Below are positions 34,812 through 35,920 of a stretch of 64,000 bases of DNA, piece after piece. How positions within the stretch are numbered: position 1 is the stretch's first letter; the number at the start of each line of letters is the position of its first letter. The DNA comes from a virus, in the UHGV virus genome UHGV-0128973. The stretch is one strand, 5' to 3'. The notes under the pieces were generated by a model. The model was not told where the DNA came from. It did no database searches and saw only the letters and a list, made by a program, of their open reading frames with translations. Both the position numbers and the translations under genes were made by a program.

Positions 34812-34888
34812 CAACAGGTAAGGGCGCTGGTGTGATTAACCAGATGAACGAGAAGGGGCCATCTGTTGGTCAGCGTCCTTTCCTGTTG
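34812..34888 (+). ncRNA. Conserved long-hairpin element, copy A.
   Basis: CAACAGGTAAGGGCGCTG...CAGCGTCCTTTCCTGTTG. The stem sequence is shared with copies B and D. Confidence 0.4.
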
Positions 34889-35093
34889 CGTCTTCTTTTC
34901 AGCGTAACAGCGGTGCTTAACAGCACTTTGGGTACAGTTCCACGAATTTACGGGTATATCCCGTCATGCTGAAAGCGCTAATCACGCTGGAAGCCAGGGT
35001 TATGCATCCCCTGTTACCGAATTGCAGCCAGGGCGCGGTGCGCCGAAAAGCATACGGAGGTGGAAGCCCTCGCCGGAGACGTACCCGGCAAGT

Positions 35094-35168
35094 GATGGTG
35101 TAGCTCAGCGGTAGAGCAGTTGGCTGTTAACCAACTGGTCGGTGGTTCGAATCCACCCACCATCGCCA
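35094..35168 (+). tRNA. trnA: tRNA-Asn (anticodon GTT), CCA encoded.
   Basis: Acceptor GATGGTG/CACCATC, D-arm GCTCAGCGGTAGAGC, anticodon loop CTGTTAA, T-arm GGTGGTTCGAATCCACC. Confidence 0.9.
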
Positions 35169-35173
35169 ATTTA

Positions 35174-35260
35174 GGGGAGTTAGTCCGTAGGGGTAGCGGG
35201 GTAGACTGTAAATCTACTGTCATTGCGACTCGGGTGGTTCGACTCCATCACTCCCCACCA
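35174..35260 (+). tRNA. Class II tRNA-Tyr-like gene (anticodon GTA, long variable arm), CCA encoded.
   Basis: Acceptor GGGGAGT/ACTCCCC, anticodon stem-loop GTAGA-CTGTAAA-TCTAC, variable arm TGTCATTGCGACTCG (compare E. coli tRNA-Tyr CGTCATCGACTTCG), T-arm GGTGG-TTCGACT-CCATC. The D-stem is weak at 3 bp. Confidence 0.7.
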
Positions 35261-35264
35261 AATT

Positions 35265-35340
35265 GCCGGTTTAGCTCAGTTGGTAGAGCAGTCGCTTTGT
35301 AAGCGAATGGTCAGCGGTTCGATCCCGTTAACCGGCACCA
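35265..35340 (+). tRNA. trnT: tRNA-Thr (anticodon TGT), CCA encoded.
   Basis: Acceptor GCCGGTT/AACCGGC, D-arm GCTCAGTTGGTAGAGC, anticodon loop TTTGTAA, T-loop TTCGATC. Confidence 0.9.
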
Positions 35341-35343
35341 ACA

Positions 35344-35426
35344 CAACAGGTAAGAGCATTTGTAGAGTTCGACTCTCTACCGTGGGCTTTTTCCCGCGAT
35401 GCGAGCCATAAATGCTCTTACCGTTG
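35344..35426 (+). ncRNA. Conserved long-hairpin element, copy B, with an internal T-arm-like hairpin.
   Basis: CAACAGGTAAGAGCATTT...AAATGCTCTTACCGTTG encloses GTAGAG-TTCGACT-CTCTAC and CGTGGG-CTTTTT-CCCGCG. Confidence 0.4.
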
Positions 35427-35573
35427 TGATGAAGTGCAGCTCTTAGAAGCAACCAGAAGATAAGCATCTGGCTTCACAACATAAACCGCAGGAACGACCA
35501 ATAAACGGTAGTCCGTATGGAGAACACCCCGTTGAGGAAGAGGCCTGGCCGGAACCGTAACCGGCACTACAAC

Positions 35574-35655
35574 GTTGAGAACACTGGCGTAACGGGGTCA
35601 TATCCCAATCTACGAATAAATGTTGCGTTGCAGCGTGACAACCAGTGTTCTCAAC
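35574..35655 (+). ncRNA. Long-hairpin element C carrying the ACGGGGTCATATCCCAATCTAC motif.
   Basis: A perfect 14-bp stem (GTTGAGAACACTGG / CCAGTGTTCTCAAC) encloses the motif at 35592-35613. Confidence 0.4.
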
Positions 35656-35846
35656 ATTGTGGTGAATGCACAGGCTGATGTGCCGCAACTACAGTAGTGC
35701 GCGCTTTGCGGGGCTTGCTACAACCCTGTGTCGGAGTTCAGCACCGACCATCACAGTTTGATTCTCTGGCATGAGCATAACGCTGAAATAAGTCCAGCCT
35801 GGTGCGGCCCGATCACCCGCCGTTAGCTCCACGAAACGGAGCACGT

Positions 35847-35920
35847 AACAGGTAAGAGCATTCTCCTGTAACGGGTTCATATCCCAATCTACAGGTCCAC
35901 CAGGAATGCTCTTTCCGTTG
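35847..35920 (+). ncRNA. Conserved long-hairpin element, copy D, carrying the ACGGGTTCATATCCCAATCTAC motif.
   Basis: AACAGGTAAGAGCATTC...GAATGCTCTTTCCGTTG encloses CCTGTA-[motif 35871-35892]-TACAGG, followed by TCCACCA. Confidence 0.4.

Follow-up and report, generated by a model that had tools for sequence, protein, structure and literature searches.

Long complementary stems in ribosomal RNA (rRNA) operons are cut by ribonuclease (RNase) III, which frees the RNA that they enclose or adjoin, and the small stable RNAs of the phage T4 transfer RNA (tRNA) cluster, 'species 1 and 2', are co-transcribed with the tRNAs and released by processing. In the late leader of phage lambda, RNase III sites just past tR' were reportedly located in vivo by Daniels and colleagues in 1988 (Virology 167:568). 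RNase III processing is also documented for the dicBF operon of the Qin prophage in Escherichia coli K-12. STnc100 (RF02076), a prophage small RNA (sRNA) related to PasD, belongs to the late region of Stx phages and has been detected as RNA. The locus described here was compared with these systems. It lies in a stretch of 64,000 nucleotides (nt) from virus genome UHGV-0128973, called the window below, and runs from the terminator of the ban-operon leader to tciA in a P1-like phage. It contains four long hairpins (A to D), three tRNA genes and three modules (M1 to M3; Table 1). An initial annotation, made from the letters of the window, had described repeated hairpins among these tRNA genes and suggested that they are processed, structured RNAs. 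The analysis leaves little doubt that the stretch is a structured non-coding RNA array.

All four hairpins were recovered at the places first described, by a repeat search, by folding z-scores and by their uniqueness under a hairpin covariance model, R1. In the repeat search, a 5' arm was common to positions 34813, 35345 and 35847, and a 3' arm with its tail to positions 35406, 35639 and 35900. R1, run over the whole 64-kb window with filters off, matched at A to D only and always scored higher on the plus strand; the scores of these copies are partly by construction, because the training set included them. Folding of all four was weaker on the minus strand, and their stabilities range from -36 to -49 kcal/mol. 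The core of hairpin C is the perfect 14-base-pair (bp) stem that had been seen before, GUUGAGAACACUGG/CCAGUGUUCUCAAC. Hairpins C and D have a 25-nt motif in common (24 of 25 positions), and the strict pattern ACGGGKT(N)ATATCCC occurs twice, at 35592 and 35871, with no occurrence expected by chance. Two of the three copies of this loop motif counted initially are therefore retained, and the one at 34950-34964 is reduced to a shorter, 13-nt version. Related tails had been assigned to the repeats as well; they are present after B, C and D, absent after A, and constitute the 5' strands of the tRNA-like modules downstream.

The family stem, (CAC)AACAGGUAAGAGCAUUG...CAGUGCUCUUUCCGUUGUG, encloses a hypervariable interior of 29-77 nt. 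Its outer helix has a median length of 19 bp, with at least 18 bp in 94% of copies and 20-27 bp in A to D, and a U.U mismatch at position 13-44 and a bulged A are conserved. In an alignment of 30 deliberately diverse copies, which took in A to D, the reference P1 copy of B, the lambda copy and both Qin copies, 93.2% of the cells pair, compared with at most 51% in slid controls. Changes on both sides were found in 16 of the 19 pairs of this alignment, against 6.9 ± 1.7 in shuffles, none of 500 shuffles reaching 16. Among 41 canonical copies, the share of pairing cells is 98.2%, and this set led to the same conclusion. The 93 unique hairpins contain 154 G.U or U.G pairs and eight A.C mismatches, an excess which indicates RNA read from the plus strand; this strand was also the more stable in 91 of 97 copies, by a mean of 6.2 kcal/mol. 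These results identify the hairpin as an RNA element with the orientation of the operon transcript, and the proposal of an RNA family conserved in structure has held.

The 3' arm of the hairpin (...CCGUU) continues into GUGGUG...; in some copies this sequence forms the acceptor stem of a genuine tRNA (Arg, Gly or Gln), and in others it begins a module. Modules have the form GUGGUG-AA-UGCGC AGGCUGA UGCGC-(variable, 30-110 nt)-GCCGG AGAUCAGCA CCGGC-CACCAC, in which an acceptor-like stem is combined with D-like and T-like arms. These three helices covary in 30 modules, in which 13 of 19 pairs changed on both sides, against 4.1 in shuffles. The earlier words 'tRNA-like' and 'processing scaffolds' are apt, since the tails are the beginnings of modules whose acceptor-, D- and T-like helices covary. 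Intermediates were also found that retain canonical D and T arms on either side of a large insertion, one of which (L115:605-712) scored 46 bits on the Rfam tRNA model. M1, M2 and M3 are called as tRNAs neither by RF00005 nor by ARAGORN; they are tRNA-like, not tRNAs. In 100 distinct hairpin contexts, the next element is a tRNA-like module in 61 and a true tRNA in five, and the rest are mostly lambda-type or mini modules. In P1, JL22, SJ46, P7, D6, lambda and Qin, the covariance-model matches to hairpin and module share about 9 nt. M1, the weakest part of the array, has an equivalent at the matching position in P1, JL22, SJ46, P7 and D6.

The nearest described relative of M3 is STnc100, a likeness that the initial annotation had missed. 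M3 aligns to positions 31-147 of the STnc100 model and has the closing stem, the 5' hairpin and the 3' CCGGG-AGGCA-CCCGG hairpin in common with it. However, its score of 37.8 bits falls below the gathering score of 47, so M3 was not assigned to the family, and neither M1 nor M2 matched it. Modules of the M2 type, M2 itself included, have no Rfam match, and the literature examined holds no published description of STnc100 as tRNA-like or as preceded by a hairpin.

Also missed at first was that the hairpins are common to lambda, the Qin dicBF operon and many lambdoid prophages. The lambda copy (about 44787-44865) starts 10 nt past the U-tract of tR', under the old 'orf-64' annotation, and is probably the mapped RNase III site. 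It scored 66.9 bits with R1 (L201:485-566), and a copy between ydfC and dicF in Qin scored 28.5 bits (E-value, E, 4e-6). Neither of these two copies was entered in the training set of R1, which did hold one hairpin labelled lambda-type, from L054. A to D match R1 on the transcribed strand and thereby belong to the lambda-type late-leader hairpin family, as defined here by that model. In lambda, as in the window, stem sequence and structure are the same, the hairpin follows a promoter-proximal terminator and a stem-closed module comes next. In contrast to P1, in which four copies flank tRNAs in an early, C1-controlled operon, lambda has one copy, no tRNAs and a Q-controlled late operon. In the lambdoid locus L020, the Q antiterminator is followed by tRNA-Asn, tRNA-Arg, a hairpin, a module, holin and lysozyme.

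The Qin dicBF operon resembles the P1 locus in its family hairpin, in a homologue of the P1 'dicF-like' leader, in its terminator and in an M3-type module placed directly before the next ORF (open reading frame), dicB. Unlike P1, where the leader comes first, Qin has the hairpin first; it also has DicF and no tRNAs, and the closing stem of its module is 18 bp long, compared with 9 bp in P1 M3. By our own mapping, the 3' end of the 72-nt DicF (53 + 19 nt, L203 about 19454) would fall in this 18-bp stem. A second, weak hairpin (15 bits) with a module (22.8 bits) was seen elsewhere in Qin, on the minus strand between cspB and essQ (L203:11062-11227), a pair located in the late leader of Qin, from Q to lysis. 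No family hairpin was found in DLP12, another prophage of K-12. One repeated unit, a hairpin followed by a tRNA or tRNA-like element, unites the late-leader hairpin of lambda, the untranslated region of dicF in K-12 and STnc100, which had so far been viewed as separate.

A scan with the exact pattern of both arms returned more than 120 viral contigs, most of them lambdoid-sized, with interiors wholly different from each other. In a species-level scan of genomes, the hairpin was found in 17 genera or species of Enterobacterales, and a unit detectable by BLAST is present in at least 1,086 of 5,426 complete E. coli genomes, unannotated among all matches listed. Matches outside the Enterobacterales were judged to be contamination by lambda control DNA or chance, about 17 chance matches being calculated for the pattern in 596 Gb. 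The 67-nt lambda hairpin was seen on contigs of about 48.4 kb, or on tiny contigs of low coverage, in assemblies of unrelated bacteria such as Pseudomonas, Shewanella, Psychrobacter and Algoriphagus (L206, L207, L211, L214, L235, L248 and others), which suggests contamination. In the open-access literature, no paper printing the stem or module sequences was found, and a preprint on Pas sRNAs does not describe the units. In the searchable literature, neither the repeated unit of hairpin and tRNA-like module nor its occurrence in P1 where plp and upl are annotated appears to have been described.

The window belongs to a P1-like phage (Punavirus), and its positions 34420-36080 are 94-98% identical to P1, RCS47, JL22 and Ro157c2YLVW. 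According to the P1 annotation, the array is located between dmt and tciA, in the ban operon controlled by C1; the coordinates of this annotation (NC_005856) were carried over to the window with position 1501 of L001 set at 34420. The only intrinsic terminator on the plus strand of the region, at 34599-34628, ends the 'dicF-like' leader in the terminator scan. No sigma-70-like promoter was found from 34300 to 37200, that is, up to ban. With one plus-strand terminator and no internal promoter found, the tRNAs, the modules and tciABC-trnI-ban must be cut from a common transcript. The start of tciA is at 36073, and trnI, further along, was also called by ARAGORN and Rfam. The view that the plus strand holds no ORF of 60 amino acids (aa) or more is true of the part outside the tRNA genes, where none is wholly contained; two ORFs of 60-62 aa (35120-35302 and 35223-35411) traverse the tRNA genes.

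Table 1. Features of the array and its flanks, in positions of the window. R1 and R2 are covariance models of the hairpin and of the module, respectively; z is the folding z-score.
Feature	Position	Strand	Basis and remarks
Pban promoters and C1 operator Oban	34393..34438	+	Start of array-bearing transcript; transferred from P1 NC_005856
'dicF-like' leader	34533..34634	+	P1 annotation and terminator scan; parallels Qin L203:19262-19350
Hairpin A	34807..34893	+	R1 45.6 bits on plus strand, 33.1 on minus; z = -5.4; outer helix 20 bp; arms all Watson-Crick
Small hairpin ACGGG-UAUAU-CCCGU	34950..34964	+	Weak, shorter 13-nt third copy of motif; strict pattern fails
tRNA-Asn (GUU)	35094..35168	+	ARAGORN; Rfam tRNA 75.5 bits
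tRNA-Tyr (GUA), 87 nt, long variable arm	35174..35260	+	ARAGORN, Rfam; between tRNA-Asn and tRNA-Thr
tRNA-Thr (UGU)	35265..35340	+	ARAGORN, Rfam; 3' end abuts hairpin B
Hairpin B	35339..35431	+	R1 61.2 bits; z = -6.6; outer helix 27 bp
Mini-module M1	35423..35480	+	R2 15.6 bits, E 0.02; acceptor-like stem and T-like arm CCAGA-AGAUAAGCA-UCUGG
Hairpin C	35565..35664	+	R1 42 bits; z = -5.8; outer helix 22 bp; divergent member, arms fully compensated
22-nt motif ACGGGGUCAUAUCCCAAUCUAC, interior of C	35592..35613	+	Twin in D at 35871-35892
Module M2	35656..35757	+	R2 80 bits; minimum free energy fold cloverleaf-like; GUGGUG-AA-UGCAC AGGCUGA UGUGC ... GUCGG AGUUCAGCA CCGAC-CAUCAC
Hairpin D	35841..35925	+	R1 66 bits; z = -4.5; outer helix 21 bp; canonical stem sequence
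Module M3, STnc100-like, directly upstream of tciA	35917..36041	+	R2 48.6 bits; z = -3.8; Rfam STnc100 37.8 bits, E 6e-6
ORFs equivalent to plp and upl	35443-35688 (81 aa), 35689-36018 (109 aa)	-	Judged probably spurious

The units of the array are gained and lost among relatives. The tRNA-Tyr gene of the window is present in Ro157c2YLVW and missing from reference P1, P7, D6, JL22 and SJ46; P7 and D6 have a tRNA-Ser (UGA) between M2 and the last hairpin; and JL22 has an extra hairpin with a module. In the Salmonella phage SJ46, a hybrid hairpin (L263:1652-1733) combines the 5' arm of C with the 3' arm of D. This looks like a deletion between the 22-nt interior repeats that removed M2, in effect a natural knock-out of this module.

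One large ornate RNA of the ROOL or GOLLD class had been offered as a loose analogy for the array. Like these RNAs, the array is phage-borne, adjacent to tRNAs and structured; in contrast, it is a chain of units of 60-130 nt, gained and lost independently in P1, P7, D6, JL22 and SJ46, not a single RNA of 500-800 nt, and the analogy was dropped. ROOL, GOLLD, YrlA and other Rfam families were rejected for the hairpins and M2, as no match at E ≤ 10 was obtained in 33900-37300 apart from chance matches to microRNA precursors, which reflect long hairpins. Some members of the hairpin family (L044:3662-3785) resemble the bacterial Y-RNA-like YrlA in setting a tRNA-like domain on a long stem; in contrast to YrlA, there is no Rfam match at E ≤ 10 and no rsr or Ro context, and most interiors of the family are not tRNA-like. 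The T4 species 1 and 2 and the stalks of rRNA operons have no sequence relationship with the array, in which a compact hairpin stands beside its cargo and the cargo is not flanked by arms.

These observations suggest how the array may work. From the leader terminator to tciA, an untranslated RNA, on this account made from Pban, carries three tRNAs and three cloverleaf-like modules, probably derived from tRNAs. A conserved long hairpin stands before each block, its 3' arm continuing into the next 5' acceptor strand. With 18-27 bp, or about two turns of double-stranded RNA, a bulged A and a U.U mismatch, the hairpins are most likely punctuation for an endonuclease. RNase III is proposed on the basis of the helix size of its substrates, as it accommodates about 22 bp (PMC6212723), and of the homologous contexts in which processing is documented; with outer helices of 20, 27, 22 and 21 bp, A to D have the length of roughly 20-22 bp looked for in an E. 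coli substrate. Cutting within the stem would divide the transcript into leader, tRNA block, small RNAs and tciABC-trnI-ban message, after which RNase P and 3' trimming would complete the ends of the tRNAs and tRNA-like RNAs, and the modules may accumulate as sRNAs. The analysis establishes the non-coding character of the region, the covarying structures of hairpins and modules, the strand, the contact of hairpin with module and the homology to lambda and Qin dicBF; cutting by RNase III and RNase P, and the build-up of the modules as sRNAs, are inferred. Taken whole, this account, an untranslated Pban RNA with tRNA and module units released at the hairpins by RNase III and finished by RNase P, is on balance the probable one. 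It provides a testable model for how tRNAs and small RNAs may be freed from the untranslated operon leaders of temperate phages.

Several points weigh against this account. The documented RNase III end in Qin maps to the closing stem of the module, not to the family hairpin, and RNase P would be faced with an unusual leader, a hairpin whose pairing extends to position -1. Among the modules, M1 is weak (E 0.02), and M2 taken alone is no more stable than shuffled sequences (z = -0.74), its support being family covariation. In addition, a plain processing site explains neither the wholesale replacement of interiors, with 38 families, nor the near-invariant canonical stem sequence in many phages.

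The interiors raise the question of their role. Lambdoid phages contribute 68 distinct interiors in 38 unrelated families, mostly of 29-47 nt, and this variety within a narrow range of lengths would suit a different function, in which the conserved stalk, cut or not, displays a functional variable RNA of 30-80 nt, such as a regulator or a decoy (a mimic of a T-arm or tRNA, for example), perhaps released in the manner of a microRNA precursor. Some interiors are tRNA- or T-arm-like, as in window B, L036 and L044:3662-3785. In hairpin B, the look-alike GUAGAG-UUCGACU-CUCUAC noticed at the outset was verified at 35362-35380; this variant of B was seen in four IMG/VR contexts, and most P1 relatives have another interior. 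One interior, GGGGCUUGGCUUAAAUGCA, is common to P1 and lambda-like phages and persists in a copy with a diverged stem (L078:7839), and C and D have their 22-nt motif in common. However, a T-arm-like sequence occurred in none of the 68 lambdoid interiors (0.06 expected), so that the T-arm mimic is not a feature of the family, and the minihelix with CCA proposed for D was discarded, as its TCCACCA sits within the hairpin and not at a 3' end. Interiors also showed no preference for pairing with the adjacent module (cognate -19.5, non-cognate -20.1 kcal/mol, p = 0.59), the analysis identified neither a target nor a partner, and free drift is expected of the loops of processing stems. Display as the function of the hairpins is accordingly considered unlikely. 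In a more far-reaching proposal, a common scaffold cut by RNase III, in P1-like and lambdoid phages alike across the Enterobacterales, might serve as an 'RNA cassette' system that expresses dozens of unrelated RNAs of 30-80 nt as selected products, for example decoys or regulators in conflicts of phage with host or of phage with phage, beside tRNA-derived scaffold RNAs with equally variable middles. This proposal is at present doubtful.

It was also considered whether the hairpins could be insulators or end-protectors and not cleavage sites, preventing misfolding between units and, after cuts by RNase P or RNase E, capping RNA ends to keep off exonucleases or 5'-end-dependent RNase E. The stability of -36 to -49 kcal/mol would suit such a role, as would the exact position at unit borders, with the 3' arm ending at the +1 region of the tRNA. 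Nevertheless, insulation leaves the conserved length of about two turns and the geometry of bulge and mismatch unexplained, and the homologous operons are known targets of RNase III, so this role is judged quite unlikely.

The arms could instead act mainly in DNA, as joints at which recombination swaps cassettes of tRNAs and sRNAs. The gain and loss of units between hairpins (tRNA-Tyr, tRNA-Ser, the extra JL22 module), the identical hairpins and modules of P1-like and lambda-like phages and the C/D fusion of SJ46 all fit this idea. But the arms measure merely 17-20 nt, and the asymmetry between G.U and A.C, together with the compensated changes, shows selection on RNA pairing. As the main role of the arms recombination is very unlikely; as a by-product it would be compatible with release at the hairpins by RNase III.

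A further idea, which is highly improbable, concerns the canonical 3' arm, which reads UGCUCUUACC in B (35413-35422) and UGCUCUUUCC in D (35907-35916). Over 8 nt these arms are identical to the boxA cores of lambda nutR and rrn. Against an expectation of 0.48, the window has five occurrences of TGCTCTTWMC, four of them in hairpins B and D; antitermination of the NusB/NusE type at such sites would keep Rho off about 1.6 kb of untranslated RNA, and a leader of this length would need protection. However, boxA of the GCUCUUUA type is conserved as a single-stranded site and bound in that form, and in B and D the motif is paired, buried in a stable stem. A, C, the Qin copy and many others change these bases with compensation, which indicates that pairing is conserved and not sequence.

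Two minus-strand genes cross the stretch in the P1 annotation, plp (125 aa) and upl (63 aa); plp, with a TTG start, runs antisense through hairpin B and trnT. The last 35 or so residues of plp are lost or changed in most relatives, with internal stops in several copies, and the ORFs of relatives are truncated, replaced or interrupted by stops. Synonymous and nonsynonymous polymorphisms stand at 1:6 in upl and 9:16 in plp, with no excess at third positions. The initial annotation had named codon-level conservation of these two genes as evidence that would speak against structured RNAs; neither a conserved ORF nor an excess of synonymous changes was found, and its view of the region as non-coding is upheld. 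A Pfam search with both proteins gave no match, and PHROG returned only families of unknown function, strong for the upl equivalents and none for plp. The P7 record annotates neither gene, and those of JL22 and SJ46 call other ORFs on other strands. That the region encodes Plp and Upl, with the hairpins incidental, is scarcely credible: upl is intact in many close relatives, a PHROG family exists and P1 carries both annotations, yet plp is poorly kept, the polymorphism carries no codon signal, Pfam has no match, relatives are annotated inconsistently and, read as RNA from the opposite strand, this DNA shows covariation. The plp and upl genes are probably not real, and an RNA map supported by covariation replaces these two long-standing, probably spurious gene calls of P1.

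Some further observations were made in and around the array. The P1 'dicF-like' leader (window 34440-34628) has its homologue in the Qin segment that precedes dicF (L203:19262-19350), and not in DicF itself; where DicF would sit, the P1 leader ends as a terminated RNA of its own, which may be a leader sRNA. The spacer before hairpin D (35758-35840; ...AAUAAGUCC...GGUGC...GAUCACC...GCUCC-ACGAAAC-GGAGC) recurs upstream of hairpins in the lambdoid loci L020, L071, L016, L025 and L044. It is a further conserved unit, and tRNA-Ser stands in its place in P7 and D6. Elsewhere in the window, Rfam matches at 14378-14584 and 18033-18207 correspond to the C4 antisense RNA with its a1b1 target, in the immI region, and to the sok antitoxin RNA, both ordinary features of P1.

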